Positions 24,453 through 64,000 are shown, counted from the first letter of the stretch. The stretch: 64,000 nucleotides of DNA from Solirubrobacterales bacterium (GCA_038232275.1 JBBSIC010000001.1:40206-104205), one strand, 5' to 3'. Made by a program: numbers and translations. The notes: a model not told the origin generated them from the letters alone.

Positions 24453-26402
24453 ATGACGCCGCGCATCGCCCTCTGCACCCGGGAGCTGCACCCGTTCATC
24501 GGCGGAGGGATCGCCCCGATCGTCCACGCGCTGTCCGGGGTGCTCAGCAAAGGTGCCGACGTCACGCTGATCACGACGGCGGCGCACCGGGAGCGCTACG
24601 AGGAACTGCTGGCCGAGGGCCCGGTGTTCGCGCCCGGCGTGCGGGTCGTCTTCGTGCAGGAGCCGCCGCCGGAGCGCGGCTACTACTACTCGTGGCTGCA
24701 GGGCTGGAGCCACCGCCTGTACGCGGGGCTCGTCGAGGCCTTCCCCGACGGCGGGCCCGACCTTGTGGAGTTCCCGGACTACCTCGCCGAGGGCTTCGTC
24801 ACCGTCCAGGCCCGCCGCACCGGCGACCCGCGCCTGCGCAACACGACCGTCGCCGTGCGCCTGCACACGACGACGGAGATCGTCTCCGTGCTCAACGGCC
24901 ACCAGGGCCAGGAGCTCGAGACGCAGGCCATCTACGAGATGGAGCGCCACTGCCTAGCCAACGCCGACCGGCTGCTGTGGCCCGGCGGCGACGTGCTCGC
25001 GACCTATGAGCGCTACTACGGCGAGCACACCCTCGCTCCCGCGGTCGAGATCCCCGACGCCTTTTTGATCCAGCGCGAGCACCCCGCCCCCGAGGTCGTG
25101 GGCGAGGGGCCGCTCAAGCTCCTGTACCTGGGCCGCATGGAGCGCCGCAAGGGCGTCCACAACCTCGTACGGGCGATGGCCTCGCTCGCGCACGACGACT
25201 GGCGGCTGACCCTGCTCGGCGGCGACACCCCGACCGGCCCGCTCGGCACGTCGATGCGCTCGAACCTGGCGATGATGACCGCGGCCGACGAGCGCTTCGA
25301 CCTCCACGAGCCCGTGCCGCGCGAGGAGGTGGGCAGGATGATCGTCGCCCACGACGCGGTGGTCGTGCCCTCGCTGTGGGAGTGCTGGCCGAACGTCGCC
25401 CGCGAGGCGCTGCTGCACGATCGCCCGCTGCTCGCGACGCCGGTCGGCGGCCTGGTCGCCTTCGTGCGCCCGGGCGAGAGCGGCTGGCTGGCGCGCGACA
25501 CGGGCGTCGGCGCGCTGTGCGACCTGCTCGAGCCGCTCGTCTCAGAGCCCGAGCAGGTGCGCGAGCTCGCTCGCTCCGGCGGGCCGAGCCGGCTCCTGGC
25601 CCGGCTCACGGACCCGGCCATGATCCTGGGGCGCTACCTGGACGCGATCGGGATCGCGAGCGCCGCACGGCCGCGGCGTAGGACGCGCACGCCGCTGGTC
25701 TCGGTCGTCATCCCGTACTACCAGCTCGACGCGTTCGTCTCCGAGACGCTCGCGTCCGTCGCGGCCCAGACGTACACGAACCTCGAGACGATCGTCGTCA
25801 ACGACGGCTCGCTGCGCGTCCAGGACGCCTTCCTCGAGCCGCTGCCGGTCCGGCTCGTCACGCAGCGCAACCGCGGCCTGGGCGCCGCGCGCAACCTCGG
25901 CGTCGCCGCCGCGCGCGGGCGCTTCGTCCTCCCGCTGGACGCCGACGACCTGCTCGAGCCCGACTTCGTCGAGTCCTGCGTGCGGGCACTGGTCGCCGAC
26001 GACGACATCGCCTACGTGGGCACCTGGTCGCGCTTCGTCGACGAGGACGGCCGTCAGATCGAGGGCGCCGACCCCGGCTACGCGCCGCTGGGCAACTGGT
26101 CGCGCCTGGCCGACGTCCAGAACGTCGCCGGCAGCGCCAGCGCGCTGCTGCGCCGCTACCTGTTCGACGTTGGCTTCGCCTACAGCCCGGAGCTGACCAG
26201 CTACGAGGACTGGCTGTTCTATCTGCAGCTGCGCGACGCGGGCCACGTGGGCGCGATCATCCCGCGGTCGCTGCTGAAGTACCGGATCCGCCGCAGCTCG
26301 ATGCTGCGCTCCACCGGCACCGACAACCTGGAGCGCCTGCGCGGAGAGGTCCTGGCCCATCTCGCCGAAGGAGGCATGCAGTGGACGTCTCAGAGCGCCT
26401 GA
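24453..26402 (+). CDS. Two-domain glycosyltransferase: N-terminal GT4 (GT-B) fused to C-terminal GT2 (GT-A)
   Basis: The GT4 E-x7-E motif is ECWPNVARE inside PSLWECWPNVAREALLHDRPLLATPVGG. The GT2 part shows LVSVVIPYYQ...IVVNDGS...LPLDADDLL. The start is ATG 24453 (MTPRIALCTRELHPFIGGG). Confidence 0.85.
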   Translation: MTPRIALCTRELHPFIGGGIAPIVHALSGVLSKGADVTLITTAAHRERYEELLAEGPVFAPGVRVVFVQEPPPERGYYYSWLQGWSHRLYAGLVEAFPDGGPDLVEFPDYLAEGFVTVQARRTGDPRLRNTTVAVRLHTTTEIVSVLNGHQGQELETQAIYEMERHCLANADRLLWPGGDVLATYERYYGEHTLAPAVEIPDAFLIQREHPAPEVVGEGPLKLLYLGRMERRKGVHNLVRAMASLAHDDWRLTLLGGDTPTGPLGTSMRSNLAMMTAADERFDLHEPVPREEVGRMIVAHDAVVVPSLWECWPNVAREALLHDRPLLATPVGGLVAFVRPGESGWLARDTGVGALCDLLEPLVSEPEQVRELARSGGPSRLLARLTDPAMILGRYLDAIGIASAARPRRRTRTPLVSVVIPYYQLDAFVSETLASVAAQTYTNLETIVVNDGSLRVQDAFLEPLPVRLVTQRNRGLGAARNLGVAAARGRFVLPLDADDLLEPDFVESCVRALVADDDIAYVGTWSRFVDEDGRQIEGADPGYAPLGNWSRLADVQNVAGSASALLRRYLFDVGFAYSPELTSYEDWLFYLQLRDAGHVGAIIPRSLLKYRIRRSSMLRSTGTDNLERLRGEVLAHLAEGGMQWTSQSA

Positions 26403-27424
26403 CCGACGAGGATCTGGCGCGGCCCGACTACCTGTCGGCCTCCCACCTGCACCGCTACGCGCTGGCGGCCGCGCTGTGCGCGGGCTCGCGGGTGCTCGAC
26501 GTCGGCTGCGGCACGGGCTACGGCACGGCGATGCTCTCCGAGCGCGGCTGTGAGGCGCTTGGGGTCGACATCGACCCCGAGGCCGTGCGCCAGGCCACCG
26601 GCTCGCATCCGGACGTGACCTTCGAGCAGGGCGACGCCCTGACCCGCCTGCGCGCGACCGGCGCGGAGGACGTCGACGCGGTGGTGATGTTCGAGGCGCT
26701 CGAGCACGTGCCCGATCCCGAGCTGGTCCTCCAGCAGCTGCGGCGCCTGTGCGCGGCCGGCGTGCGGCTCGTCGTCTCCGTGCCCAACAGCCAGGCCTTT
26801 CACGAGCGCAACGAGTTTCACGTCACCGACTACGGGTGGACGGAGGCGCGCCGGGCCTTCGCGGACATCGACGGCGCCGTGTTGTTGTACCAATATCTGT
26901 CGGAGGGCTCGCTGATCGTGTCCGACGAGGCCGAGCGCGCGCTCGACGGCGAGGTCGCCGCGCTCGACCAGGCCGAGCCGGAGTACGCCAACACCTACAT
27001 CTGCGCGGCCGGCTTCGAGCCCGGCGCGGTGACCGCCGCGTCCGCGCGCCTGAACCTGGTCGCCACGCCGAGCCACAACCGCTACATGCTCGATCTCGAG
27101 CGGGCGAACACCGAGGTCTTCCGCGTCAACCGCCAGCTCGCCCGCGGCGTCATGGGCAAGCACGACGCCGCGGCCGCCGCGATGATCTCCAAGTACGAGA
27201 CCGAGATCGCCTACCGCGATCGGCTCGTGGCCGATCTCGACCGCGAGGCCAAGCTGCTCGCCGTCCAGCTCGCCCAGGAGCGCGCCTGGCGCGACGCCCC
27301 GCGCTACCACCTCGTCGATCGCGTAGCTGCCGCGATCCGCGCCGTGCCCGGCGTCGCACAGGTCGCGCGCGGGGCCTGGTGGATCGTGCGACGGGCGTTC
27401 CGCCGCCGACCGCAGGCGGACTAG
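26381..27424 (+). CDS. SAM-dependent methyltransferase with a C-terminal coiled-coil region (WbdD-like architecture)
   Basis: The RBS GAAGGAGG lies 6 nt before GTG 26381. Motif I is VLDVGCGTGYG. The C-terminal roughly 120 aa are heptad-like and charged (NRYMLDLERANTEVFRVNRQLARG...ISKYETEIAYRDRLVADLDREAKLLAVQLAQERAW). It overlaps the upstream GT by 22 nt. Confidence 0.8.
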   Translation: MDVSERLTDEDLARPDYLSASHLHRYALAAALCAGSRVLDVGCGTGYGTAMLSERGCEALGVDIDPEAVRQATGSHPDVTFEQGDALTRLRATGAEDVDAVVMFEALEHVPDPELVLQQLRRLCAAGVRLVVSVPNSQAFHERNEFHVTDYGWTEARRAFADIDGAVLLYQYLSEGSLIVSDEAERALDGEVAALDQAEPEYANTYICAAGFEPGAVTAASARLNLVATPSHNRYMLDLERANTEVFRVNRQLARGVMGKHDAAAAAMISKYETEIAYRDRLVADLDREAKLLAVQLAQERAWRDAPRYHLVDRVAAAIRAVPGVAQVARGAWWIVRRAFRRRPQAD

Positions 27425-28806
27425 CCGCCGAGCTTGAGCTGCTCCGTGGCGCCTTCGGTGACCAGGGCGACCACCGCCATGAACGCGGCGTAGCCGACGG
27501 CGATCGCGGCGGGGGTGAGCCACGAGCGCGGGCGCGCGGGCCGCGGCCAGCCCGGCGCGAGGACGAGCATCGAGGCGAGCACGAAGGCGGGCAGCAGGAA
27601 GCGCGTCTCCACCGCCGAGGGCAGCGCCGACGCGCACGTGAGGACCAGGGCCACCGCGTAGCGCCAGCGGGCAGGGCCGAGGCCCCGGCGGGCGGCCGGC
27701 CACGAAAGCCGCAGCAGCGCGGCGAAGATGAGCGTCCAGCTCGCCAGCCGCAGCGGCCGCTGCCCTCCGGTGTCGAGGCGCTCCACGTACGGCGTGGGGT
27801 AGCGCTGGTCGATGCCGTTGACGACGTGGCGGGCGACCACCCCCGCCATGGTCAGCGGGTGCTCGGCGATCAGGCCGAGGTACTCCAGGTACCCGCTCAC
27901 CCGGCGGTCGCGGCCGAGATCGTCGACCACGGCCCGCGTGTGCGGGTCGAGGTAGCTCATGCGCGGGGACCGGCCGTCGAAGCCGACATAGGTCTCGTAG
28001 CGCTGCAGCTGCAGGCCCGTCGTGAGCTGGAAGCTCGTGAGGTCGGCCGGCGCGCCGGGGAGCGGGCTCCAGAGCCCGTACTGGCGATGGGTGATCAACG
28101 ACTGCGGCACGAGCACCACGGCCATGCCGGCTACCACCAGCGCGAGCGCCGCGGCGCGCCGGCCCCTCCGCGGGCGCTCCGTGCCCGTCCGCCGGCCCAT
28201 CGCCACGAGGACCAGCACGGCGGGGATGAGCACGAGGTAGGCGGGCCGGGTGTCGACGGCGAAGCCGGTCGCGGCGCCGCACGCCGCCACCGCCGGCAGC
28301 GACGAGGCGCGGCTGGCCAACAGCAGCGCCGCCAGCGCGGCGACCAGCGCGGGGAAGTCGCTGAGCGGATAGCTCAGATAGCCGTGCCAGAAGACCAGCA
28401 GCGCCACGACGAGGCCGAGCCGCCGCCAGACCCCGAACGTCCGCTCGGGCCAGATCGCGCGCGCCAGCCGCGGCGCGAGGACCGCGCCGGTGAGCGCGAA
28501 CAGCAGCGCGTTGAACAGCCGCACGACGGTCGAGCCGGTCGCGCCGGCGTCGAAGGCCTCGGCGACGACGCGCAGGGCCCCGTACACCAGCGCGGGCGCG
28601 TACCCGCGCAGCGGGTTGCGGTAGTGCAGCAGGGAGAAGTCGCCGTGGTCGAGGAAGGCCTTCGGGGCGTACCAGTAGGCGGCGGCGTCGAAGGGGGGGA
28701 ACGCCTTGCTGCCGATGACCAGCGCCGTCAGCGCCGCGAGCACGAAGCCGGCGGCGAGCGCGCGCACCTCCGCGCGGGCGAGCCGGCCCCGGATCCCCTC
28801 CCGCAC
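27421..28806 (-). CDS. Polytopic membrane protein, GT-C-like (putative extracytoplasmic glycosyltransferase)
   Basis: About 11 hydrophobic segments are visible. The first loop FPPFDAAAYWYAPKAFLDHGDF has acidic and aromatic residues as in ArnT/PMT-like enzymes. An extracytoplasmic loop of about 110 aa sits in the middle. The family is uncertain. Confidence 0.55.
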   Translation of the reverse strand: MREGIRGRLARAEVRALAAGFVLAALTALVIGSKAFPPFDAAAYWYAPKAFLDHGDFSLLHYRNPLRGYAPALVYGALRVVAEAFDAGATGSTVVRLFNALLFALTGAVLAPRLARAIWPERTFGVWRRLGLVVALLVFWHGYLSYPLSDFPALVAALAALLLASRASSLPAVAACGAATGFAVDTRPAYLVLIPAVLVLVAMGRRTGTERPRRGRRAAALALVVAGMAVVLVPQSLITHRQYGLWSPLPGAPADLTSFQLTTGLQLQRYETYVGFDGRSPRMSYLDPHTRAVVDDLGRDRRVSGYLEYLGLIAEHPLTMAGVVARHVVNGIDQRYPTPYVERLDTGGQRPLRLASWTLIFAALLRLSWPAARRGLGPARWRYAVALVLTCASALPSAVETRFLLPAFVLASMLVLAPGWPRPARPRSWLTPAAIAVGYAAFMAVVALVTEGATEQLKLGG

Positions 28807-28809: not shown

Positions 28810-30075
28810 CTACTCGAGCGGGGAAGCCGGGCTGAACGCCCCGAGCTCCGCCGCGTAGGCGAAGACCTGCGCTGAGCCGAAGGCGTTCCACGGGTCGACG
28901 ATCACCGCATCGGACGAGGCGAGCCGCAGGACCCGCGCCAGCGCCACCGGGGTCGAGTACTCGGAGTGGTTGGTGGCCACGATCACGACGTCGGCGTCGG
29001 TGACGGCCTGGTCGAAATCCTGCGTCGGCGTCGGGACCAGCGGGTCGTGGACGGCGACGTCGGCGAGCTCGCGCTCGAGCAGGCGGATGAGCTTGTGCGA
29101 CAGGGAGTCGCGCTCGTCGTCGGTGTCCTGCTTGAAGGCCAGGCCGAGCACGGCGATCTTCTTCTCGCGCAGCGACCCGCCGACGCGGCGCTTGACGCCG
29201 TCGACCAAGAAGGAGGGGACGCTCTCGTTCACGCGGCTCACCGCCAGCAGCATGCCGGGGGCCGACGAGCGCTCCTCCGAGAAGGCGAAGTCCTTGCGCA
29301 GGCACGTCCCGGCCGTGAAGCCCGGGAGCGCGATGCCGCCGCGCGGGTAGTCGCGGTTGATCAGGTCGATGACGTCGAAGACGTTCGCGCCGTAGCGCTC
29401 GCAGTCCATCATCAGCAGGTTGGGCAGCGCGAAGGTCGCATAGCGCAGGATGTTGGCCCAGATCTTGGCGAGCTCGGCCTGGACCGGGGTCGACTGGACG
29501 ACGGGGGCGCCGAAGATGGCAAACAGGGCGGCGGCCCGGGCGGCGGAGGCGGCGCCGACGCCGCCGACGATGCACGGCAGCGTCCCGATCTCCGCGAAGA
29601 AGCGCGCGGCGGCGATGCGCTCGGGCACGTGGGCGACGAAGACGTCCTCGCCGACCGTGAAGCCGCGGTGCTTCTCCAGGTAGCCGGCGACGAACTCGGT
29701 CGTGCCGGGGGCGACGGTCGAGCGCAGCACCAGCAGGTGCCCGGGCGCGAGCAGCGGCAGCAGGTCGTCGAGCACCAGCCGCACCTCGCCCATGTCGATC
29801 TCGATGTGCGACAGCGCCGGCGTGCCGACGGTCAACACGATCGCCTCGGCGCGAGCGGCGTCGGCCGCGCGCTCGGACAGGCTGAGCCGGTCCGCGACGC
29901 GGGCGAGCATGTCGTCGGCGCCCGGCTCGACGAACGGCATGCGGCCGGCGCCGAGCGCCTCGAGCCGGTCTGAGTCCTTGTCGACGCCGAGCACGCGCAG
30001 GCCGGCGTGGGCGAACGACAGGGCCAGCGGCAGTCCCACTCGGCCCAGACCTATGACCGAGACGTCGTAGTCCAT
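28810..30075 (-). CDS. Nucleotide-sugar dehydrogenase (UDP-glucose/GDP-mannose dehydrogenase family; WecC/TviB-like)
   Basis: The Rossmann motif is VSVIGLGRVGLPLALSFAHAG. The catalytic Cys region is PGFTAGTCLRKD. Confidence 0.9.
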   Translation of the reverse strand: MDYDVSVIGLGRVGLPLALSFAHAGLRVLGVDKDSDRLEALGAGRMPFVEPGADDMLARVADRLSLSERAADAARAEAIVLTVGTPALSHIEIDMGEVRLVLDDLLPLLAPGHLLVLRSTVAPGTTEFVAGYLEKHRGFTVGEDVFVAHVPERIAAARFFAEIGTLPCIVGGVGAASAARAAALFAIFGAPVVQSTPVQAELAKIWANILRYATFALPNLLMMDCERYGANVFDVIDLINRDYPRGGIALPGFTAGTCLRKDFAFSEERSSAPGMLLAVSRVNESVPSFLVDGVKRRVGGSLREKKIAVLGLAFKQDTDDERDSLSHKLIRLLERELADVAVHDPLVPTPTQDFDQAVTDADVVIVATNHSEYSTPVALARVLRLASSDAVIVDPWNAFGSAQVFAYAAELGAFSPASPLE

Positions 30076-30087: not shown

Positions 30088-30930
30088 CTAGGAGGCGCGT
30101 CCCCGCGCGCGATGGCGCAGGTACTGCAGCGCGAAGCCGTGGACGAAGAGCGGGTTGTAGCGCGCGTAGCGCCGCCACAGGCGCCGGGGCTCCTTGGCCA
30201 GGCGGAAGGCCCACTCGAGGCCGAAGCGCTGCATCCAGGCGGGCGCCTGCGTGACGAGGCCGGCGTGGAAGTCGAAGGCCGCGCCGACGCCGACCAGGAC
30301 CGAGGCGTCGAGGCGCTCGCGGATGTGCGCCATCCACTTCTCCTGCTTGGGCACGCCGATGCCGACCCACACGATATCCGCGCGGGCGCGGTTGATCTCG
30401 GCGACGACGGCCTCCTCTTCCTCGGCGTCGAGCTCGCGGTAGGGCGGGGAGTAGCCACCGACGATCTGCAGGCCGGGGAAGCGCCGCCGCAGGTTGAGGG
30501 CGAGCTGTACGAGGGCACCCTGGTTGCGACCACCGTAGAGGTACATCCGCACGCCGGTCTCGGCGGCGCGCTCGCAGGCGCGCTCCATCAGCTCGGGGCC
30601 GTAGACGCGGCTGGGAAGGTCGTGGCCGAGCATGTTCATTGCCCACACGAGCGGCTGCCCGTCGGGGACCGTGAAGTCGGCGTTCATGACGGCCTCGCGC
30701 AGGTCGGCGTCCTCCTGGCAGACCATCACCGTGTGCACGGCCGCGACGCAGATGTAGCCGTGGTCGCGCTGGGCGATGGTGGCGTCGATCCAGTCGAGGG
30801 TCTTCTCGTAGTCCGTCAGCGCCAGCGGGATGCCGAGCACGGGCTCCTCGTCGACGCGCGGCGTGACGGGCAGCGGGATGGCCCGGGCAGGGTGCGCCGA
30901 GGCGAGGTTGGTAAGGGCTGGGGAGGGCAT
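30088..30930 (-). CDS. WecG/TagA/CpsF family (GT26) glycosyltransferase
   Basis: ICVAAVHTVM...ADFTVPDGQPLVWAMN...VLVGVGAAFDFHAG is typical of N-acetylmannosamin(uron)yltransferases. Confidence 0.85.
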   Translation of the reverse strand: MPSPALTNLASAHPARAIPLPVTPRVDEEPVLGIPLALTDYEKTLDWIDATIAQRDHGYICVAAVHTVMVCQEDADLREAVMNADFTVPDGQPLVWAMNMLGHDLPSRVYGPELMERACERAAETGVRMYLYGGRNQGALVQLALNLRRRFPGLQIVGGYSPPYRELDAEEEEAVVAEINRARADIVWVGIGVPKQEKWMAHIRERLDASVLVGVGAAFDFHAGLVTQAPAWMQRFGLEWAFRLAKEPRRLWRRYARYNPLFVHGFALQYLRHRARGRAS

Positions 30931-31072: not shown

Positions 31073-32170
31073 CTACGCCGCGGCCGCGGCCAGCGCGGCG
31101 CGCACGGCGGCGGTCACCTCGCCGGCCTGGGCAGCGTCGAAGACCGGGCTCATCGGGATCGCGAGGTGGTCCGCCGCGACCGCCTCGGTGACCGGGAGCC
31201 CGACGCCCGCACCGTAGCGGGACATCGCCGGCTGGCGGTGCACGGGGGTGCGATAGTAGGCCTTGGCGCCGATGCCGCTCTGCGCCAGCGAGGCGGCGAG
31301 GCGGTCGGCCCGGGGATGGCGGATCACGTACAGATGCCAGGCGGGCTCGCAGCCCGTTGCGCGCGCCGGCAGCGTCACGAGCTCGCCGAGGCCGGCCTGC
31401 TCGTAGTGGCGCCCGGCGGCGGCGCGGGCGGCGGCCCAGGTGTCCAGATGGGGCAACAGGACGCGCAGGATCGCGGCCTGCAGCTCGTCAAGGCGGCTGT
31501 TGTAGCCGACCTCCTGATAGCTGACCTTGTCGTAGGAGCCGTGGAAGCGCAGCACCCGCAGCCGCTCCGCCAGGCCGGCGTCGCCGGTGGTGACCGCGCC
31601 GCCGTCGCCGAAGGCCCCGAGGTTCTTCGACGGAAAGAACGAGAACGTCGCCAGCGTGCCCAGCGAGCCCGGGCGGCCGTCGGCGGTGGTCGAGCCGGCC
31701 GCCTGCGCGGCGTCCTCGACGACCGGGACGCCGAGCGCCTCGATCTCGCGCACGGGCGCGACGTTGCCGAACAGGTGGACGGCCAGGATGGCGCGCGTGT
31801 GCGGCGTCAGCGCGGCCCGGACGGTGTCCGCCGTGACGCAGAACGTGCCCGGGTCGATGTCGCAGAAGACGGGGTTGGCGCCGGCGTTGACGATCGCCTC
31901 GGCGCTCGCGTAGAAGGTGAAGGAGGGGACGACGACGTCGTCGCCGGGCAGGACGCCGAGCGCGCGCAGGGCGAGGGTGATCGCGTCCGTGCCGTTGGCG
32001 ACGCCGACCGCGTGGCGCGCGCCGCAGTGGGTGACGAGCTCCTGCTCGAAGGCGGCGACGTTGGGCCCGAGGATGAAGCGCCCGTCGTCGATGACCCCCG
32101 CGATGGCCGCGTCGACCGCCGCGCGCAACGGCAGCAGCGCGGTCTTCGTATCGAACAGGGGGACGGGCAC
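31073..32170 (-). CDS. DegT/DnrJ/EryC1/StrS family PLP-dependent sugar aminotransferase
   Basis: GVANGTDAITLALRALG is present. The PLP lysine lies in FSFFPSKNLGAFGDGG. Confidence 0.9.
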   Translation of the reverse strand: MPVPLFDTKTALLPLRAAVDAAIAGVIDDGRFILGPNVAAFEQELVTHCGARHAVGVANGTDAITLALRALGVLPGDDVVVPSFTFYASAEAIVNAGANPVFCDIDPGTFCVTADTVRAALTPHTRAILAVHLFGNVAPVREIEALGVPVVEDAAQAAGSTTADGRPGSLGTLATFSFFPSKNLGAFGDGGAVTTGDAGLAERLRVLRFHGSYDKVSYQEVGYNSRLDELQAAILRVLLPHLDTWAAARAAAGRHYEQAGLGELVTLPARATGCEPAWHLYVIRHPRADRLAASLAQSGIGAKAYYRTPVHRQPAMSRYGAGVGLPVTEAVAADHLAIPMSPVFDAAQAGEVTAAVRAALAAAAA

Positions 32171-50873: not shown

Positions 50874-50876
50874 CGC

Positions 50877-55290: not shown

Positions 55291-55370
55291 TCGCTCCACG
55301 CCTGGGCGGGTGAGTGCCCGCGGCTGGTCGAAACTGATCCCTACCCAGCCCAAGCCGTAATCGGCTCACC

Positions 55371-55422: not shown

Positions 55423-55438
55423 GCCTCGCCCCGGCCGC

Positions 55439-57889: not shown

Positions 57890-59869
57890 GTGCGCGCCAG
57901 CGTCGTCATCCCCACGCTGAACCGGGCGAAGAGCCTGCACGACACGCTCGACGGACTGCGGCGCCAGACGTTTGCGCACTTCGAGGTGATCGTGGTCAAC
58001 GGGCCGTCGACCGACGGGACGCGCGAGCTGCTCGCCGGCCTTGAAGATGTGCGGGTCGTGGAGAACCGCGAGCGCAACCTGTCGCGCTCGCGCAACCTTG
58101 GTGTCGCCGCCGCGGCCGGGGACGTCGTGGCGTTCATCGACGACGACGCGATCCCCGAGTCGCGCTGGCTGGAGCAGCTCGTCGCCCCGCTGGAGCTCGA
58201 TCCCCGCCTCGCGGCCACCGGGGGCCTCGTGCTCGACAACAGCGGCGTCCGCGTCCAGTGGCGCCATCTGGTCAGCTCGCGGGCCGGGGAGCAGGACTTC
58301 GACCAGGTGCCGCCGCTGGAGCGCTTCGTGGCGCCCGGCGCGGATCCGTTCCTGTACGTCGCCGGGGGATGCAGCGCGTTCCGGCGAGCGGCGCTCGTCG
58401 AGATCGGGGGCTTCGACGAGGAGATCGAATACAACTTCGACGAGACCGAGGCGTGCCTGCGCCTGCTCGACGCCGGCTGGCGGCTCGAGTCGCTCGATGC
58501 GGCGGTGGTCCACCACCGCTTCCTGCCCTCCCACCAGCGCTCGTCCGTGGCCTTCACCGACCCGTTTTATGAGGTCAAGAACCGCGTCTACTTCGGTCTG
58601 GCCAACGGCACGCGCGGGCGCGCGTCCTGGGAGGTCCTGGCGAGCGTCAACCTGTTCCTCAGCCGGCTCAAGGCCGGCGCGCGCGACGCCGCCGCGCACG
58701 GCCGGCTCGACCCGGTGGACCTCGCCCACTACCTCGGCCGGGCCGACGCGGGCTTTCACTCCGGCCTCCAGCGCGGCCTGCGCGCACGCCGGCGCGGCGT
58801 CGCGGTGCCGGCGCCGGACCCGTCGGCGTTCGTCGCCTACCGCAGCGCCGGGACGGGGGAGCGTGCCGTTCTTGTCGCCGACCTTCCCGGCGCGCGTGCG
58901 CGCGCCGACGCCGGCGACGAGGTCCATCTGCTGCTCCCCGAGCCGGCCGGCACGCCGTACCGCGTCGACTACGACGCCGGCGTCTGGGTGCGCCACGTGC
59001 CGGTTAACCCGCGCTGGCTGCCGGGCGTCTCACACCGTGGCGCGGCCGAGCTCGAGGCGGCGCTGGCCGGCGCGCGCGCGGACGTCGAGGGCACGGCGGA
59101 TCGCCGGCGCTTCCCCGTCGACTGGGAGTATGAGGCGCGCATGGTGCTCGCCGAGCACGAGCCGGATGCCCTCGTCGAGGCCGCCTACCGGCGGCTGCTC
59201 GGACGGGCGCCGGATGCCATCGGCCGCGAGATCGCGCGGGCCGACCTGCTGCACCGCGGAACGCCCCAGGAGCTCGTGCGCCGGATGGCCCGGTCGGCGG
59301 AGGGGCGCGGGCGGGGGATCGACCCGGACCTGCACCTGCCCAGCGTGCCGGCCGCCGAGGCGCGGGGCCGCCTGCGCGCCGCGTGGCTGCGCGACGACGC
59401 GGCGTTCGCCCGCGAGGTCTGCGCGCTGCTTCTCGGCGACGAGGCGCGCGCTGCGCCGGTGGACGTGGGCGACCGCGGCGCCTTCGTGCGCGCGCTCGCG
59501 GCCCGCCCGCAGGCGCTCGACCGCGTGGCGGGCGCGGACCGGCTCCCGCCGGACGGGGTCCGCACCGCTCCCGAGCTGCGCGCCGAGCTCGACCGGCTCG
59601 CCGGCGCGGCCGACGCGGCGTTCGTCGACGGGCTCTACCGGCTGCTGCTCGGCCGCGACGCCGACCCGGACGGCGCCGCGGCGTACGTTGGCGGGCTGCG
59701 GGCCGGGCGGGCGCGGGCATCGGTCGTCCAGGAGATCGCCTCCTCGCACGAGGCGGCCGGCTACGGCAGCGCCCCCGACGTCGTCGCCGCGCACCTGCGG
59801 GCCAGCGCGGCCTTCCGGCCGCGCCTAGTCCAGCGCGCGCGGAGCGTGCTCAGGCGCGCTCGCGACTGA
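57890..59869 (+). CDS. GT2 family glycosyltransferase fused to a C-terminal region with two DUF4214-like repeats
   Basis: The GT2 part is ASVVIPTLNR...VIVVNGPSTDGT...RNLGVAAAAGDVVAFIDDDA. The DUF4214-like repeats are LVEAAYRRLLGRAPDAIG...LVRRMARSAE and FVDGLYRLLLGRDADPDGAAAYVGGL...VVQEIASSHE. Confidence 0.8.
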   Translation: MRASVVIPTLNRAKSLHDTLDGLRRQTFAHFEVIVVNGPSTDGTRELLAGLEDVRVVENRERNLSRSRNLGVAAAAGDVVAFIDDDAIPESRWLEQLVAPLELDPRLAATGGLVLDNSGVRVQWRHLVSSRAGEQDFDQVPPLERFVAPGADPFLYVAGGCSAFRRAALVEIGGFDEEIEYNFDETEACLRLLDAGWRLESLDAAVVHHRFLPSHQRSSVAFTDPFYEVKNRVYFGLANGTRGRASWEVLASVNLFLSRLKAGARDAAAHGRLDPVDLAHYLGRADAGFHSGLQRGLRARRRGVAVPAPDPSAFVAYRSAGTGERAVLVADLPGARARADAGDEVHLLLPEPAGTPYRVDYDAGVWVRHVPVNPRWLPGVSHRGAAELEAALAGARADVEGTADRRRFPVDWEYEARMVLAEHEPDALVEAAYRRLLGRAPDAIGREIARADLLHRGTPQELVRRMARSAEGRGRGIDPDLHLPSVPAAEARGRLRAAWLRDDAAFAREVCALLLGDEARAAPVDVGDRGAFVRALAARPQALDRVAGADRLPPDGVRTAPELRAELDRLAGAADAAFVDGLYRLLLGRDADPDGAAAYVGGLRAGRARASVVQEIASSHEAAGYGSAPDVVAAHLRASAAFRPRLVQRARSVLRRARD

Positions 59870-60679
59870 GAGCAGCCACCGGGCGACCTCCTCACCGGCG
59901 ATGCGCGAGCCGAGCGCGTTGAGGTTGACCCGGTTGGCCCCTCGGGCGCGCGCACGGTGGGGGGCGAGCAGCTCGTCGACCTCGATGACCTGCGCGCCTG
60001 CGGCGGTCGCGGCCGCGCGCACATCGGCCTGGAGCCGCCGCTCGGTCGCCCGGCGGCCGCGGGAGTGCACGAGCAGCGCCGGCACGGGCAGGACCCCCAC
60101 CGGCGCCTGCGGGAACGTCTTTCCGGTGGCCGCCAGGAAGGCCGCCAGGGCATCCGGCCCCCGGTACGGGACGAGGTCCTTCGCGAGCGTCTTGACGATC
60201 GGGTCGCTGGCCCGGAGGGCGAGGTGCGCGTGCCTGCCCATGCGCCGCCCGATGTCCGTCCGGAGCCGGTCGAGGAACGGGTTGCTGGGCAGGAGCCGGC
60301 GGGAGTAGTGGACGCTCCCGGTCGCCACGACGATCGCGTCGGGCGGGCCGCTCAGGCGCAGCCACCGCGTCAGCGCCTCGGGGTCGCCGGGGAGCGCGTC
60401 GAGGCTGGCGACCGTGACCACGGAGATCTCGAGGCCGATGCCCTGCGCGACGAGCCGCTCGGCGACGACGCGCGGCCAGCCCGGCGGCGTGTGGGTGCCG
60501 TGCGCGTGCTCCATCTCGCGCCAGCCGCAGTCGGCGTAGAGCGCGAGCCGCAGCGTGGGCAGGCCCGCAGGCGCGATCCCGCGCCAGCGGCGCGTTGGGT
60601 CGGGGACGTGCGGGCCGAGGATCTGATGCCGCGCGCGTCGCAGCGTGGTCCGAGCCGTCTCCCGGGTGACCGATGGCAT
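59825..60679 (-). CDS. Hypothetical protein with SGNH/GDSL-hydrolase-like block pattern but substituted catalytic residues (tentative)
   Basis: LRLALYADCGW sits where block I GDS is expected. VVATGSVHYS sits where block III GxND is expected. NRVNLNALGSRIAGE sits where block V DxxHxN..G is expected. This weak resemblance is the only basis for the call. Confidence 0.4.
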   Translation of the reverse strand: MPSVTRETARTTLRRARHQILGPHVPDPTRRWRGIAPAGLPTLRLALYADCGWREMEHAHGTHTPPGWPRVVAERLVAQGIGLEISVVTVASLDALPGDPEALTRWLRLSGPPDAIVVATGSVHYSRRLLPSNPFLDRLRTDIGRRMGRHAHLALRASDPIVKTLAKDLVPYRGPDALAAFLAATGKTFPQAPVGVLPVPALLVHSRGRRATERRLQADVRAAATAAGAQVIEVDELLAPHRARARGANRVNLNALGSRIAGEEVARWLLSVASAPEHAPRALD

Positions 60680-60719
60680 CGCGCCGGAGATTAGGCGCTT
60701 TCGCCTAGCGTTCTCGTGG

Positions 60720-61139
60720 ATGGTCCTTCCCCGCGCCCTCGCCCTGGACCCTCCGCGCGACCACCGCGAGGAGATGCTGCGCTTCCTCGTCGTCGGCGGT
60801 TGCGGGTACGTGCTGGCGATGGGCTTCTACGCGCTGGAGATCGCGGTCGGCGTGTCCGCATACGTGGCCGTGCCCCCGGTCTTCGTCTTCAACGGCCTGT
60901 TCAACTTCACCCTCAACCGGCTGTGGTCCTTCCCGCGCAGCGGCCGGCCCGTGCACCACGAGCTAGGCCGGTTCGCGATCGTGGCGGCGGTCTCCCTGGT
61001 CGTCAACTACGCGACGCTCTACCTGCTGCACGACGCGGCCGGCATGGCCGCGGTGCCCGCGCAAGCGCTGGCGATCATCGCCGCCGTGCCCGTGGGCTTC
61101 TTGGGCAACAAGTTCTTCTCCTTCGGGACGGCGCGATGA
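60720..61139 (+). CDS. GtrA family membrane protein (lipid-linked sugar translocation-associated)
   Basis: MLRFLVVGGCGYVLAMGFY...NFTLNRLWSF...LGNKFFSF is present, with four TM segments. The start is ambiguous (60720 or 60774). Confidence 0.8.
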   Translation: MVLPRALALDPPRDHREEMLRFLVVGGCGYVLAMGFYALEIAVGVSAYVAVPPVFVFNGLFNFTLNRLWSFPRSGRPVHHELGRFAIVAAVSLVVNYATLYLLHDAAGMAAVPAQALAIIAAVPVGFLGNKFFSFGTAR

Positions 61140-62257
61140 GCGCGGTCGGCGGGCGGGTCGTGCCGGCCAACGACTTCGCGGCCCAGTGGGACGACGTCCG
61201 CACGGATGCGCTCGCCGCCGTCGATCGCGTCGGGCGCAGCGGCTGGCTCGTGCTGGGCCAGGAGGTCGAGGCCTTCGAGGCCCAGGTCGCCGCGTGGTGG
61301 GGCGTCGAGCACGCCGTCGGCGTGGCCAACGGCCTGGACGCGATCGAGATCGCGCTGCGCTGCGGGGGGATCGGGCAGGGCGATCGCGTGCTGACCACGC
61401 CGCTGACGGCCTTCGCGACGACGCTCGCCATCCTGCGTGCGGGCGCCGAGCCGGCCTTCTGCGACGTCGACGCGACGGGCGGGCTGGACCTCGCGCAGGC
61501 CGACGCGGCGCTCGCCGCCGACGCCGGCATCCGCGCGCTCGTGCCCGTGCACCTGTACGGCCATCCGCTGGATCCGGCGGCGCTGCGCGACCTCGCCGGG
61601 CGCCACGCTGTCGTGGTGATCGAGGACTGCGCCCAGAGCGCCGGCGCCGCGCGGGCCGGCGAGCCGACGGGCCGGGCGGGGCTGGCCGCGGCGACGAGCC
61701 TGTACCCGACCAAGAACCTCGGCGCCATGGGCGACGGCGGGCTCGTGCTCACCGACGACGTCGGGGTCGCCGAGCGGGCGCGGCGCCTGCGCAACTACGG
61801 CCAGGGCGAGCGCTACCACCACGTCGAGACCGGGCTCAACAGCCGGCTGGACGAGCTCCACGCCGCGATGCTCTCCTCGGCGCTGCTGCCGCGGCTGGAC
61901 GGATGGCTGAAGCGGCGCGCCGAGGTTGCCGCGCGCTACGCGCAGGCGCTGCGCGGGTCCGCCGTGCTGCGGTGCATCGAGCCGGCAGACGGGCGCTCGG
62001 CCCACCACCTCTTCCCCGTCGAGGTCGTCGACGGAGAACCCGCGGACCGCGCCGCCGAGCTCGCCGCCGCGGGCGTGCGCGTCGGGCGCCACTACCCCGT
62101 GCTGTGCCCGGACCAGCCGGCGCATCCGCGTCCGGCCCAGGTTCCGGTGGCCCGCCGGCTCGCCGAGCGCGAGCTCTCGCTGCCGGTCCACCCGTATCTG
62201 TCCGAGGCCGACGTGGATCACGTGATCGCCGCGTGCCAGGGGCTCGCCGCCACATGA
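61136..62257 (+). CDS. DegT/DnrJ/EryC1-type sugar aminotransferase (FdtB/QdtB/WxcK-like by context)
   Basis: It has an ATGA overlap with the upstream gene. GVANGLDAIEIALRCGG is present. The PLP lysine lies in SLYPTKNLGAMGDGG. Confidence 0.9.
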   Translation: MSAVGGRVVPANDFAAQWDDVRTDALAAVDRVGRSGWLVLGQEVEAFEAQVAAWWGVEHAVGVANGLDAIEIALRCGGIGQGDRVLTTPLTAFATTLAILRAGAEPAFCDVDATGGLDLAQADAALAADAGIRALVPVHLYGHPLDPAALRDLAGRHAVVVIEDCAQSAGAARAGEPTGRAGLAAATSLYPTKNLGAMGDGGLVLTDDVGVAERARRLRNYGQGERYHHVETGLNSRLDELHAAMLSSALLPRLDGWLKRRAEVAARYAQALRGSAVLRCIEPADGRSAHHLFPVEVVDGEPADRAAELAAAGVRVGRHYPVLCPDQPAHPRPAQVPVARRLAERELSLPVHPYLSEADVDHVIAACQGLAAT

Positions 62258-63207
62258 GCGTTCGAGCCAACTCGCTCGTGATCCCGGTCTACCGCAACGC
62301 GGCGATGATCGACGCGCTCGTGACCGCGGTCGCCGGCATCGCCGAGCAGGTCGAGGACGGCTTCGAAGCCGTGTTCGTCGTCGACGGCAGCCCGGACGAC
62401 TCGCATGACCGGCTCGTCGCCGCGCTCTCCGACGCCCCCTTCGCCTCCCGCGTGATCTCCCATGCGCGCAACTTCGGGTCCTTCGCGGCGATCCGCACCG
62501 GCATGGCCGCCGCGCACGGGCGCTTCGTCGCCGTCATGGCCGCCGACCTCCAGGAGCCGCCCGCGCTCGTCGTGGAGTTCTTCCGACGGCTCGCCACGGG
62601 CGAGGTCGACGTGGTCGCCGGCGAGCGCGCCAGCCGCGACGATCGCGGCGACGGCGCCTCGCGCCTGTACTGGCGGCTGTACCGGCGCTTCGTCATGCCG
62701 GAGATGCCGGCCGACGGCGTCGACGTGTTCGGCTGCACCGCCCAGGTGCGCGACGTCGTCTGCGCGCTCGAGGACCAGCACACGTCGCTCGTCGCCCAGT
62801 TGTTCTGGGTCGGCTTCCGCCGCGAGCTCGTCCCCTATGACCGCCTGGCGCGCGAGGGCGAGAGCGGCTGGACGCTGCACCGCAAGCTGCGCTACCTGTC
62901 TGACAGCGTCTTCGCCTTCACCGACCTGCCGATCCGGATCCTCTGGATGGTCGGCGTGCTCGGGCTCGCCCTCGGCACGGCGCTGGGGCTGGCCGTGGCG
63001 GTGCTGCGGCTCGCGGGCATCATCGCGGTCCCCGGCTACGCCCCCACGATCCTGGTCGTGATCTTCTTCTCCGGGCTCAACTGCGTGGGCTTGGGCATCA
63101 TCGGCTCGTATGTCTACCGCGCCTACGAGACCGTCAAGGGCCGGCCTGGCGCCATCGTCTCCGAAGCCGTAGAGACCTCCAAGGAGCGCGACCGTGTCGA
63201 CGCGTGA
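62254..63207 (+). CDS. GT2 polyprenyl-phosphate glycosyltransferase (GtrB/ArnC-like) with two C-terminal TM helices
   Basis: It has an ATGA overlap with the upstream gene. LVIPVYRN...FVVDGSPDDS...VAVMAADLQEPP is present. The C-terminal TM segments are ILWMVGVLGLALGTALGLAVAVL and ILVVIFFSGLNCVGLGIIGSYV. Confidence 0.85.
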   Translation: MSVRANSLVIPVYRNAAMIDALVTAVAGIAEQVEDGFEAVFVVDGSPDDSHDRLVAALSDAPFASRVISHARNFGSFAAIRTGMAAAHGRFVAVMAADLQEPPALVVEFFRRLATGEVDVVAGERASRDDRGDGASRLYWRLYRRFVMPEMPADGVDVFGCTAQVRDVVCALEDQHTSLVAQLFWVGFRRELVPYDRLAREGESGWTLHRKLRYLSDSVFAFTDLPIRILWMVGVLGLALGTALGLAVAVLRLAGIIAVPGYAPTILVVIFFSGLNCVGLGIIGSYVYRAYETVKGRPGAIVSEAVETSKERDRVDA

Positions 63208-64000
63208 GGTCTTCGTCCACGAGCACGGCCTCGTGGAGAGCGACGACGTCGGTGCCGGCACCCGCGTGTGGGCGTTCGCGCACATCCTGCCGGGCGCGCG
63301 CGTGGGCGAGGACTGCAACGTCTGCGACAACGTCTTCATCGAGGACGGCGCGGTCGTCGGCGACCGCGTCACCCTCAAGCCCGGCGTGCAGGTGTGGAAC
63401 GGCGTGACCCTGGAGGACGACGTCTTCGTCGGCCCCAACGCCACCTTCACCAACGACCTGCGCCCGCGCAGCCGGCAGTGGCTCACCGAGCACCCGCAGA
63501 CGATCGTGCGACGCGGCGCGTCCATCGGTGCCAACGCGACCATCCTGCCGGGCCTCGAGATCGGCACGGGCGCCATGGTCGGGGCGGGGGCGGTCGTCAC
63601 CCGCGCCGTGCCGCCGCATGCCGTCGTCGTGGGCAACCCCGCCCGGATCACGGGCTACGACGCCGATGCCGCCCGCCGCGGCGACGAGCCGGTTCCCGCC
63701 CGCCCCGAGGCCGCCCTCGGCGTCACCGAGCTCGGCGTCTCAGGCGTCACGCTGCACCGCTTCGCCGAGCATGGCGACATGCGCGGCTCGCTGACCTCCA
63801 GCGCCGTCGCCGCGCCCGACGGCGTCCCCTTCGACGTCCAGCGCTGGTTCATGGTCTACGACGTCCCGACCCGCGAGGTCCGCGGCGAGCACGCGCACCG
63901 CCGCTGCCACCAGTTCCTCATCTGCGTCGCCGGCAGCGTCATCCTCGCCGTCGACGACGGCCACAACCGCGGCGAGGTCCTGCTCGACGCCCCGTCGAAG
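63194..64000 (+). CDS. WxcM-like bifunctional protein: N-terminal left-handed beta-helix N-acetyltransferase fused to an FdtA-like (sugar 3,4-ketoisomerase, cupin) domain; 3' end is beyond the window
   Basis: This ORF is not in the ORF track because it has no stop in the window. The RBS AAGGAG lies 7 nt before GTG 63194. Hexapeptide repeats are present (VGEDCNVCDNVFIEDGAVVGDRVTLKPGVQVWNGVTLEDDVFVGPN...IGANATILPGLEIGTGAMVGAGAVV). FAEHGDMRGSLTS...FDVQRWFMVYD...RGEHAHRRCHQFLICVAGSVILAVDDG then resembles the WxcM-like C-terminal domain. Confidence 0.8.
   Translation, partial: MSTREVFVHEHGLVESDDVGAGTRVWAFAHILPGARVGEDCNVCDNVFIEDGAVVGDRVTLKPGVQVWNGVTLEDDVFVGPNATFTNDLRPRSRQWLTEHPQTIVRRGASIGANATILPGLEIGTGAMVGAGAVVTRAVPPHAVVVGNPARITGYDADAARRGDEPVPARPEAALGVTELGVSGVTLHRFAEHGDMRGSLTSSAVAAPDGVPFDVQRWFMVYDVPTREVRGEHAHRRCHQFLICVAGSVILAVDDGHNRGEVLLDAPSK

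Follow-up and report, generated by a model that had tools for sequence, protein, structure and literature searches.

A conserved glycan neighborhood of Solirubrobacterales that probably builds a cell-envelope heteropolysaccharide by an export-then-decorate route

What is assembled by a locus in which an ATP-binding cassette (ABC) exporter, a Wzx-type flippase and glycosyltransferases (GTs) dependent on polyprenyl phosphate are encoded side by side? The question is raised by positions 24,453 to 64,000 of a 64,000-nucleotide stretch of DNA (hereafter the window) from a Solirubrobacterales bacterium (GCA_038232275.1, JBBSIC010000001.1:40206-104205). An initial annotation, made from the sequence alone, had described these 40 kb as a composite locus merging three assembly logics, namely ABC-dependent polymerization, Wzx-type flipping and decoration by GT-C enzymes. 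The analysis presented here indicates that the region is probably one conserved neighborhood that builds a complex cell-envelope heteropolysaccharide by an export-then-decorate route. The host, correctly recognized at first as a high-GC actinobacterium, can now be placed more precisely in the Actinomycetota, within the Thermoleophilia and the order Solirubrobacterales. Solirubrobacterales are abundant soil actinobacteria and represent a deep-branching, mostly uncultured class-level lineage of Actinomycetota. A limited literature search on their wall-polysaccharide biosynthesis returned unrelated metagenomic work only.

Gene content and conservation of the neighborhood

The G+C content of the whole window is about 74%, so that plain lists of open reading frames (ORFs) are swamped by spurious frames. 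Genes were called from third-position GC (GC3) together with a codon log-odds model for which the clearest ORFs served as training set, and every called gene was scanned against Pfam (21-64 kb and 0-21 kb), the NCBIfam equivalog cutoffs being applied as well. These scans, together with structure models, reproduced the domain inventory of the initial annotation almost item for item (Table 1). Pfam identifies six GT4 domains (in the genes starting at 24453, 34898, 36049, 37194, 38282 and 52619), seven GT2 domains (24453, 40421, 43898, 45010/45112, 52619, 57890 and 62254), one GT26, two nucleoside diphosphate (NDP)-sugar dehydrogenases, two DegT aminotransferases, one GtrA protein and one WxcM-like fusion. 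The set further includes four S-adenosylmethionine (SAM) methyltransferases (26381, 39445, 49992 and 51789, the last one a weak match) and three GT-C-like proteins, one recognized by Pfam (45903-48023) and two by predicted fold (poly461, 27421-28806, and poly786, 41396-43756). About 27 of the 36 genes in 24.4-64 kb are glycan-related, versus a single one (a GT1 at 18486) among about 22 upstream genes, which is an enrichment far beyond chance.

The left border of the block is ctaA (23423-24574, minus strand), whereas the right border lies beyond the window end. The heme A synthase gene ctaA is also found at the cluster edge in a relative (locus L052), where its product is 43% identical, and its presence beside the cluster in both cases suggests a conserved chromosomal location. 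The gene linkage is looser than first described, when 1-4 nucleotide (nt) overlaps were attributed to most genes: overlaps of 1 or 4 nt occur at 10 of 34 junctions, corresponding to 10 of the 20 co-directional ones, or 11 if a probable CTG start at 45010 is counted. It had also been considered that homology searches might divide the region into characterized loci, for instance of the teichuronic acid type. No called gene reaches the cutoff of any characterized NCBIfam equivalog (including Tua*, Eps*, the galactan ABC exporter, ArnC, PgfS and AglJ), and the region therefore does not split into already characterized clusters.

Synteny was analyzed in 79 loci around the DUF2142-family GT-C (45903-48023), which were found in species-representative genomes with a family-alignment scan. 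Each locus spans ±10 kb around this gene and was searched by tblastn with all window proteins; the 10-kb flank limits the genes visible per locus, and the counts denote presence within it. Nearly all of these loci come from Solirubrobacterales genomes, and the relatives of the DUF2142 GT-C (48-56% identity) are assigned by annotation to metagenome-assembled genomes of Solirubrobacteraceae or Solirubrobacterales. Synteny searches had been suggested in the initial annotation, and they show the neighborhood kept together, although rearranged, in relatives whose proteins are about 50% identical. A core of the form GT4–GT4–(polyprenyl-P GT2)–GT-C–GT2–(GT2+GT4)–Wzm–Wzt recurs in the 79 loci, and it consists of the ABC branch and the lipid-sugar/GT-C branch. 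A GT2 of the 43898 type stands beside the GT-C in 57 of the 79 loci, Wzt lies within 10 kb of it in 40, the GT2+GT4 fusion encoded at 52619 is present in 23, and the GT4s labelled GT4c and GT4d, both part of the widely conserved core, are found in 36 and 27 loci, respectively. The Wzx/GT4 and linkage-unit branches vary more between loci, unless their genes fall outside the 10-kb flanks.

Conservation extends further in two loci with a GT-C about 50% identical to that of the window (L001 and L002), where the gene order of 34-60 kb is almost completely retained and the proteins are 47-87% identical. The order starts with Wzx, three GT4s, then a GT4, a methyltransferase and a poly786 orthologue of about 770 amino acids (aa), these three on the minus strand, followed by the polyprenyl-phosphate GT2 and the GT-C. 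Beyond the GT-C come a penicillin amidase, aldo-keto reductase or DUF488 gene, the GT2+GT4 fusion, Wzm and Wzt on the minus strand, and a large GT2(+GT4) protein.

The two ends of the block are linked by a different observation. In the window, poly461 (27.4 kb) and the DegT–GT2–WxcM module (60.6-64 kb) occupy opposite block ends, 33 kb apart. Among the five relatives in which the gene context of poly461 was analyzed (L082 to L086), three carry the poly461 orthologue next to a DegT–GT2(315 aa)–hexapeptide/FdtA module (L082, which also has GtrA, L083 and L084), an adjacency that ties the left and right ends of the window together. On chromosome OY970274.1, the poly461/WxcM block (L082, 1,705,037-1,726,452) lies about 6 kb from a GT-C/ABC core (L039, 1,732,591-1,754,749). 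Taken together, the synteny and the poly461/WxcM pairing indicate that the block is one functional neighborhood.

GT-C enzymes and a proposed export-then-decorate model

Two of the three GT-C-like proteins, poly461 and poly786, gave no Pfam match even at E=10 and no NCBIfam match. Their AlphaFold models are confident, with a predicted local distance difference test (pLDDT) of 91.3 and a predicted template modeling score (pTM) of 0.92 for poly461, and of 93.6 and 0.94, respectively, for poly786. Foldseek searches of the PDB with poly461 retrieved mostly GT-C enzymes at the top (STT3, ALG3, ALG9, Pmt4, ArnT, EmbA/B, PglB, DPY19 and AftB; TMq 0.40-0.46), while the membrane domain of poly786 matched AftA, EmbC, EmbB, PglB, AftB and STT3, and its C-terminal beta-sandwich matched CBM6, CBM35 and CBM36 modules. 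On the strength of these models and of their mostly GT-C top matches, both are predicted to be GT-C-fold proteins. Profile comparison with hhalign connects poly786 to the DUF2142 family (85% probability, E 5.7e-6) and was negative for poly461 (4% probability), so that the assignment of the latter rests on its predicted fold, on residue D40 and on gene context. The DUF2142-family profile itself found no match among PDB sequences.

Family alignments identify as invariant D40 of poly461, located in the loop after transmembrane helix (TM) 1; D124, within a conserved DD motif, and C616/C774 of poly786; and D246, E247 and H250 of the DUF2142 protein. The conserved D40, D124 and D246/E247/H250 sit where GT-C enzymes carry their modified DxD motif, and these acidic residues, together with the C616/C774 pair, fit an extracytoplasmic location and catalysis. 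All homologues of poly461 and poly786 bear the annotation "hypothetical" and are free of Pfam domains; those few for which a source is named come from Solirubrobacteraceae, Solirubrobacterales, Thermoleophilaceae, Paraconexibacter and unclassified Actinobacteria. Two sizeable GT-C families without a Pfam model are thus delineated, the poly461 family comprising 1306 representative clusters at E ≤ 1e-3 and at least 960 at E ≤ 1e-10 in an exhaustive search; nine longer members of this family were inspected for domain fusions, and none contains any Pfam domain. As for the DUF2142 protein, about half of its homologues do not have the first ~215 residues (window 45903-46550), which consist of one TM helix plus about 170 aa on the extracytoplasmic side, where C53 and C121 are conserved. 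Residues 1-215 are a lineage-specific N-terminal domain.

Fold matches to STT3, PglB and Pmt4 bring protein glycosylation into consideration. A methyl-capped glycan would then leave the cell through the ABC exporter and be attached to proteins of the S-layer or elsewhere on the surface, on the pattern of Geobacillus stearothermophilus, while the GT-C/polyprenyl-phosphate GT2 pairs would act in a Pmt/Ppm- or Pgf-like manner. Pointing in the same direction are the PMT_2 match of the DUF2142 protein, the proximity of the lipid-sugar synthases to AglJ (S-layer N-glycosylation) and PgfS (Streptococcus mutans protein glycosylation), both below cutoff, and the resemblance of a methyltransferase-GT fusion in L082 to WsaE of an S-layer glycan pathway (PMC2943079). 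Nevertheless, the fold matches extend across the GT-C superfamily as a whole and are no guide to the acceptor, and the best matches of poly786 are the polysaccharide-elongating AftA, EmbC and EmbB, in addition to its CBM-like domain. Moreover, the GT26 linkage-unit enzyme is typical of wall-linked polymers, and the window contains neither a WsaB/PglL/O-antigen-ligase-type transferase nor an S-layer gene. On balance, an acceptor protein for this glycan appears improbable.

In the route favored here, the decorating sugars would be placed on an exported polysaccharide, whose own anchor may be peptidoglycan, a lipid or a protein. The ABC pathway of this route is represented by Wzm and Wzt, encoded together with a 4-nt overlap, and by the C-terminal carbohydrate-binding domain (CBD) of Wzt (Wzt_C, residues 263-398); residues 15-388 of this protein align with full-length Aquifex Wzt including its CBD (PDB 8dku/7k2t, 8e-58). 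The GtrA/GtrB/GtrC-type features are also encoded, since there are two membrane GT-A polyprenyl-phosphate synthases, a GtrA flippase and polytopic proteins of GT-C fold with predicted transfer activity, and the GT2 at 43898 would be the donor synthase for the adjacent GT-C. Regarding the three assembly logics that were initially proposed, an ABC exporter, a Wzx-family flippase and polyprenyl-phosphate/GT-C decoration do share one neighborhood, but a separate Wzx/Wzy pathway is not encoded, as Wzy, a polysaccharide co-polymerase (PCP) and an initiator are missing from the window. A canonical Wzx/Wzy capsule or exopolysaccharide locus was accordingly rejected: Wzx is present without Wzy, PCP or initiating transferase, and the unassigned polytopic proteins are predicted to fold as GT-C, not as Wzy.

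From the gene identities, which are established by the scans and models, we infer the order of events, the substrates and the product as follows. A distal WecA/TagO-type enzyme would prime polyprenyl phosphate, and the GT26, a probable second-sugar (linkage-unit) transferase on polyprenyl-PP-GlcNAc, would add the second sugar. The two NDP-sugar dehydrogenases and the first DegT aminotransferase would provide this sugar, probably an amino or uronic one. The backbone would be polymerized in the cytoplasm by the multidomain GT2/GT4 enzymes (24453, 52619 and 57890) together with soluble GT4 and GT2 enzymes, and a neighboring methyltransferase would cap or methylate the chain. Once finished, the chain would be recognized by the C-terminal CBD of Wzt and exported by Wzm/Wzt. 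Two GtrB/ArnC-like GT2s would load sugars onto polyprenyl phosphate, one donor most likely being 3-acetamido-3,6-dideoxyhexose produced by the FdtA-type isomerase, the second DegT aminotransferase and the hexapeptide acetyltransferase, and GtrA would move the lipid-linked donors to the outer face. The Wzx-family protein, co-operonic with three GT4s, probably flips a lipid-linked oligosaccharide, like GacK or WpsG. Outside the membrane, the three GT-C enzymes would transfer sugars to the exported polymer. It is proposed that poly461 is the transferase for the lipid-linked 3-acetamido-3,6-dideoxyhexose, while poly786, given its Emb/AftA-like architecture and CBM-like domain, is a candidate for processive or en-bloc addition.

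Terminal methyl capping is suggested because Wzt carries a CBD, methyltransferases flank both bifunctional GTs, and a methyltransferase-GT fusion exists in L082; neither a kinase nor a coiled-coil ruler was found. It has been demonstrated that methyl capping licenses export in the WbdD/Wzt system (PMC3482155), and capping for export has been proposed for the multidomain methyltransferase-GT-GT enzyme WsaE (PMC2943079). In addition, the initiating enzyme is encoded at a distance from the cluster in E. coli O9a (PMC3482155) and in S. mutans (PMC9574508). Since model systems also encode it elsewhere, a window free of initiator genes is compatible with an ABC pathway.

Several observations weigh against this model. 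Non-glycan genes break it at 48.0-51.7 kb and 54.7-55.8 kb, and its genes fall into at least eight transcription directions. No initiating phosphoglycosyltransferase (PF00953, PF02397), no LCP/WaaL/WsaB-type ligase, and no Wzy (Wzy_C) or Wzz/PCP chain-length regulator was detected among the called genes of the 64-kb window, so that we infer the start and the end of the pathway; a Wzy_C gene occurs among the relatives in L083 only. Within 10 kb of the GT-C, poly786-like genes are present in 11, Wzx in 10 and GT26 in 4 of the 79 loci, and the adjacency of poly461 to the WxcM module was not seen in two of the five relatives (L085 and L086). A capping role for the methyltransferases is suggested by their position and by a single fusion, the 51789 enzyme scoring below the Pfam cutoff, and all sugar identities are guesses, since no NCBIfam equivalog cutoff was reached.

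An alternative is a glycan island, in which independent pathways are parked together, each ending on a different acceptor. The sub-block at 24.4-41.3 kb would then make a Wzx-flipped oligosaccharide or a polymer resembling teichuronic acid, 41.4-48 kb would encode a lipid-sugar/GT-C pair of the Ppm/Pmt kind, 51.8-59.9 kb would serve a homopolymer exported by the ABC transporter, and 60.6-64+ kb would form a three-component module for amino-sugar decoration. The separation of these sub-blocks by non-glycan genes, the many divergent and convergent operon boundaries, and the reshuffling among relatives, with Wzx, GT4a/b and GT26 in a minority of the 10-kb neighborhoods, are in line with this scenario, as are the poly461+WxcM blocks of L083-L084, which have no ABC genes within 10 kb. 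However, about half of the 79 species have Wzt within 10 kb of the pair formed by the GT-C and the polyprenyl-phosphate GT2, probably more often than by chance given the few such exporters per genome (the chance rate itself was not computed). The 34-60 kb order, including the DUF488 and aldo-keto reductase genes, is kept in L001/L002, where proteins are about 50-80% identical; poly461 and its probable donor module lie at opposite block ends, the corresponding OY970274.1 block being about 6 kb from the core; and no sub-block has its own initiating transferase, Wzy polymerase or ligase. For these reasons the island is considered an unlikely explanation, if one to be taken seriously, and one neighborhood working by export followed by decoration is preferred.

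Relation to known envelope glycans

Diderm lipopolysaccharide (LPS) systems had been named as the closest analogs, but the architecture as a whole is better matched by the rhamnose wall polysaccharides of monoderms and by mycobacterial arabinogalactan. ABC export combined with Wzx/GtrA flippases, GtrB-like GT-A enzymes and several GT-Cs is the accepted model for how streptococci, lactococci and enterococci make their rhamnose-rich wall polysaccharides (PMC9574508, PMC8035078), and in S. thermophilus a DUF2142 protein is encoded together with a Wzx-like flippase and the RgpCD transporter in some rgp loci (PMC9746298). As proposed for the locus described here, these systems (gacA-L of the group A carbohydrate (GAC), the L. 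lactis cwps locus for rhamnan plus PSP, S. thermophilus rgp and E. faecalis epa) rely on a cytoplasmic backbone and on export of the Wzm/Wzt type. As in the model proposed for the window, their initiator is encoded outside the locus, and extracellular side chains are added via a GtrB-like GT-A, a GtrA/Wzx flippase and several GT-Cs. Unlike them, the window contains no rml genes, no recognizable orthologues of the GacB/C/F/G rhamnosyltransferases and no visible GacJ/WpsB-like activator, and its Wzt with a CBD and the methyltransferases beside the polymerases would follow instead a capping logic of the O8/O9a type. The host is also distinct, being a high-GC actinobacterium, and two of the GT-Cs belong to families without a Pfam model.

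Mycobacterial arabinogalactan depends on WecA, WbbL, GlfT1/2, the Wzm-Wzt pair Rv3783/Rv3781, the GtrA-like Rv3789 and the Aft/Emb GT-Cs, with PpgS/Rv3779 for GalN decoration. It belongs to the same phylum and shares with the model proposed for the locus a linkage unit, cytoplasmic polymerization (by bifunctional GT2s), Wzm/Wzt export and GT-C elaboration from polyprenyl-phosphate monosaccharides. As in the Emb proteins, a C-terminal domain of carbohydrate-binding type is present in poly786, whose best structural matches are AftA, EmbC and EmbB; this similarity to Aft/Emb is at fold level only (10-15% identity, TM-score ~0.3-0.45). The same export-then-GT-C logic operates with Wzm/Wzt in arabinogalactan assembly, and the window Wzt matches M. 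tuberculosis RfbE (PMC13649706). Differences are found in the absence from the window of UDP-galactopyranose mutase and of domains of the decaprenyl-phosphoryl arabinose (DPA) pathway (UbiA/DprE), in lipid-sugar donors that derive from NDP-sugars via GtrB/ArnC-like GT2s, and in the CBD of the window Wzt. Membership of the mycobacterial galactan exporter families was rejected (NF050109, 56 vs 380 bits; NF050108, 159 vs 400 bits).

The comparison with the E. coli O8/O9a polymannan system (WbdA-D, Wzm/Wzt), made in the initial annotation, holds for the proposed capped, CBD-recognized ABC branch; the architecture as a whole is better matched by the monoderm systems. Both have an ABC pathway, multidomain GTs, a Wzt with a CBD and a methyltransferase gene beside the polymerase, as for capping (PMC3482155). 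In contrast, the O8/O9a product is a diderm LPS O antigen ligated by WaaL, without GT-C decoration modules, and neither the coiled-coil ruler of WbdD nor the kinase domain that this protein carries in O9a was detected in the window. The parallel drawn with the Xanthomonas campestris wxc cluster (wzm, wzt, wxcA-E, wxcK-N) fits the GtrA-DegT-GT2-WxcM module well, since the domain content of 60645-64000 matches: next to wzm/wzt, both encode an aminotransferase, an ArnC-like GT2, a WxcM-type fusion and a GtrA-like protein. In X. campestris, the wxcK-N-type module supplies a 3-acetamido-3,6-dideoxyhexose branch. The likeness is one of domain content. The wxc cluster serves a diderm LPS, whereas the window has its candidate acceptor-side GT-C poly461 33 kb away, two more GT-Cs and a Wzx. 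The slg locus of G. stearothermophilus (WsaE, WsaF, Wzm/Wzt) provides another Gram-positive ABC-dependent glycan with overlapping wzm/wzt. Its methyltransferase-GT-GT protein WsaE is proposed to cap the chain for Wzt recognition (PMC2943079), a comparable methyltransferase-GT2(-GT4) fusion being found in L082 and not in the window. The slg glycan is transferred to the S-layer protein via WsaB and its locus is devoid of GT-C modules, while the window has no such transferase, S-layer gene or rml genes.

Two further groups of candidates were rejected on their scores, namely teichuronic acid/Eps membership (TuaD 118-136 vs 700, TuaB 22 vs 580, TuaG 60 vs 400 and EpsA 151 vs 500 bits) and membership of the PseC, ArnB/ArnC, PgfS and AglJ equivalogs (far below the curated cutoffs). 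The locus thus works like the monoderm systems and is no member of any of them by orthology. As the assembly principle is already known from Gram-positive rhamnopolysaccharides and mycobacterial arabinogalactan, it represents a new example and not a new principle; what is new is the lineage, the two unmodelled GT-C families and a testable donor/acceptor pairing, that of poly461 with the DegT–GT2–WxcM–GtrA module. The locus also gives a genetic handle on the main candidate for a secondary envelope glycan of Solirubrobacterales. Cultured relatives such as Conexibacter, Solirubrobacter, Patulibacter or Paraconexibacter seem to have genes of this kind as well.

A bolder version of the model would have Solirubrobacterales build an arabinogalactan-like, two-domain wall heteropolysaccharide, with a cytoplasmically polymerized, methyl-capped, Wzm/Wzt-exported backbone that is extended and branched by poly786 and the two other GT-Cs from polyprenyl-phosphate sugars; poly461 and poly786 would then stand for two new GT-C families, with poly461 as the missing acceptor-side transferase of WxcM-type modules. 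In this full form the idea is speculative and rather unlikely. If true, it would imply that the export-then-GT-C logic either is ancestral to the phylum or recurs within it, instead of being peculiar to Mycobacteriales.

Individual genes and adjacent observations

Table 1. Genes of the glycan block in the window, with the evidence for each assignment
Feature	Coordinates	Strand	Evidence and remarks
Bifunctional GT4+GT2, 649 aa	24453..26402	+	Pfam Glycos_transf_1 residues 209-373, Glycos_transf_2 residues 417-556
SAM methyltransferase directly after the GT4+GT2 gene	26381..27424	+	Pfam Methyltransf_23/11/25
poly461, Pfam-less polytopic protein, 461 aa, predicted GT-C fold	27421..28806	-	AlphaFold/Foldseek
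NDP-sugar 6-dehydrogenase 1	28810..30075	-	Pfam UDPG_MGDP_dh N/central/C; TIGR03026 277 bits (cutoff 190)
GT26, WecG/TagA/CpsF family	30088..30930	-	Pfam PF03808 217 bits; TIGR00696 177 bits, above cutoff
DegT/DnrJ/EryC1 aminotransferase 1	31073..32170	-	Pfam PF01041 327 bits
NDP-sugar 6-dehydrogenase 2	32203..33450	+	Pfam; TIGR03026 410 bits (cutoff 190)
Wzx-family (MOP) flippase	33450..34901	+	Pfam Polysacc_synt_3 (PF13440) 46.8 bits; ~12 TM by hydropathy
Three tandem GT4s	34898..36052, 36049..37194, 37194..38306	+	Pfam Glycos_transf_1, Glyco_transf_4
GT4 (GT4d)	38282..39427	-	Pfam
SAM methyltransferase, start inferred at 40422	39445..40422	-	Pfam Methyltransf_23 98.5 bits
Soluble GT2	40421..41338	+	Pfam PF00535
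poly786, Pfam-less, 786 aa	41396..43756	-	Predicted N-terminal GT-C-fold membrane domain and C-terminal CBM6/35-like beta-sandwich
Polyprenyl-phosphate GT (GT2, 4 predicted C-terminal TM)	43898..45013	+	Pfam PF00535; PDB ArnC 9e-20, DPMS 4e-14
Soluble GT2 (GT2s)	45010..45906	+	Pfam PF00535 partial; in 31/79 loci
GT-C, DUF2142/PMT_2 family, 706 aa, ~12 predicted TM	45903..48023	+	Pfam PF09913 91.6 bits, PF13231
Interposed, mostly non-glycan genes	48042..51728	mixed	DUF488 (-), lipoprotein-like ORF (+), globin (-), SnoaL-like (-), methyltransferase 49992-50873 (+), aldo-keto reductase (-)
Weak SAM methyltransferase	51789..52622	+	Pfam Methyltransf_23 26.3 bits (cutoff 27); overlaps next gene by 4 nt
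Bifunctional GT2+GT4, 681 aa	52619..54664	+	Pfam Glyco_tranf_2_3 residues 75-294, Glycos_transf_1 residues 537-636
YccF membrane protein (+), SUI1/YciH-like protein (-)	54722..55765	mixed	Pfam
Wzm, ABC-2 permease	55765..56625	-	Pfam ABC2_membrane PF01061 65.8 bits; in 33/79 loci
Wzt, ATPase with C-terminal CBD	56622..57863	-	Pfam PF00005 77.2 bits; PF14524 Wzt_C 78.6 bits (cutoff 30.4)
GT2 + DUF4214, 659 aa, divergent from wzt	57890..59869	+	Pfam
Uncertain gene, weak SGNH/GDSL-like	59825..60679	-	Pfam PF13472 22.2 bits (cutoff 32.9); moderate coding signal
GtrA-family small flippase	60645..61139	+	Pfam PF04138 65.9 bits
DegT aminotransferase 2 (WxcK/FdtB-like role)	61136..62257	+	Pfam PF01041 285 bits
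GtrB/ArnC-like polyprenyl-phosphate GT, 2 predicted C-terminal TM	62254..63207	+	Pfam PF00535; PDB GtrB 5ekp 1.6e-33, ArnC 1e-25
WxcM-like fusion, hexapeptide acetyltransferase + FdtA 3,4-ketoisomerase	63194..64000	+	Pfam Hexapep, FdtA residues 184-268; cut by window end

In the left part of the block, the GT4+GT2 protein at 24453, which reached no NCBIfam equivalog, is a candidate backbone polymerase or adaptor enzyme, and the methyltransferase that follows it, 39% identical to a methyltransferase domain fused to a GT2(+GT4) protein in L082, is a candidate O-methylating or capping enzyme. The closest models of dehydrogenase 1 are UDP-ManNAc and UDP-Glc dehydrogenases, and the GT26 scored below the cutoffs of the TarA and WecG equivalogs. 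The three tandem GT4s are coupled to wzx via 1- or 4-nt overlaps; this Wzx-GT4-GT4-GT4 operon is kept in L001, with GT4 orthologues that are 67-76% identical and in the same order. In L002, the methyltransferase at 39445 and the GT2 at 40421 have orthologues with 56% and 63% identity, respectively.

At the center, the NCBIfam models closest to the 43898 enzyme are AglJ and PpgS, both below cutoff. The start of the next gene, encoding GT2s, deserves a comment. Its first canonical start is GTG 45112; the 60 codons before it contain no ATG, GTG or TTG, and starting there would cut the first ~35 residues off the GT2 domain. The L002 orthologue begins with MSVSVAVPT, which aligns with LISVAIPT encoded in the window upstream of that start. 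GT2s therefore likely starts at the CTG within CTGA (45010-45013), overlapping the preceding TGA stop.

Within the 48.0-51.7 kb insert, the DUF488 and aldo-keto reductase genes occupy matching places in L001, L002 and L005, and the 49992-50873 methyltransferase has 33-44% identical counterparts beside GT4/polyprenyl-phosphate GT2/GT-C genes in nine relatives; given this recurrence, part of the insert may belong to the pathway. The lipoprotein-like ORF (~48510-48944, plus strand), which lies in a gap between the gene calls, has an LAGC lipobox and a possible GTG start at 48510; a longer version from 48105 overlaps the opposite-strand DUF488 gene, and its 5' part is probably not real. The weak methyltransferase at 51789 is a candidate chain-terminating methylase. 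The GT2+GT4 fusion that follows it has 67-78% identical orthologues beside wzm/wzt in L001, L002 and L005, making it a candidate backbone polymerase of the ABC-dependent branch. The YccF and SUI1/YciH-like genes are absent at the corresponding position in L001 and L002 and are probably unrelated passengers. The SUI1/YciH-like gene (55439-55765, minus strand) starts 1 nt inside the wzm end and looks translationally coupled to wzt-wzm.

On the right, the counterpart of the 57890 protein in L001 (from 20046) and L002 (from 20905) is a GT2+GT4 protein of ~1270 aa, 47% identical over the N-terminus. In L082, a 1080-aa methyltransferase+GT2+GT4 protein (18055-21297, minus strand) corresponds to places where the window has separate or shorter genes, and domain fission and fusion seem frequent in this pathway. 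The call at 59825 overlaps both neighbors, by 45 and 35 nt, making its start or its reality uncertain; its product is a possible glycan esterase or acyl-modifying enzyme. The 60645-64000 module is co-directional, with gene overlaps of 4, 4 and 14 nt. Its GtrA protein is 49% identical to an orthologue beside the same DegT-GT2-WxcM module in L082, the second DegT aminotransferase has 68-70% identical orthologues in L082-L084, and full-length orthologues of the truncated WxcM-like fusion measure 316-317 aa in L082 and L083 and 310 aa in L084. The NCBIfam models closest to the 62254 enzyme are PgfS and ArnC, with scores below cutoff.

Upstream of the block, at 6590-8121 (minus strand) and 15343-19649, the window encodes a second ABC-2 exporter pair, a beta-lactamase-fold protein, a YkuD L,D-transpeptidase and an EryCIII-like GT1, which are envelope-related but not part of the glycan neighborhood. 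No tRNA genes, as possible island borders, were found in the window. Finally, the wzm/wzt region (56000-58000) has the lowest G+C in the window, 0.67-0.68 versus an average of ~0.74. Low G+C is common in glycan-export genes, and here it might reflect horizontal exchange of the transporter.

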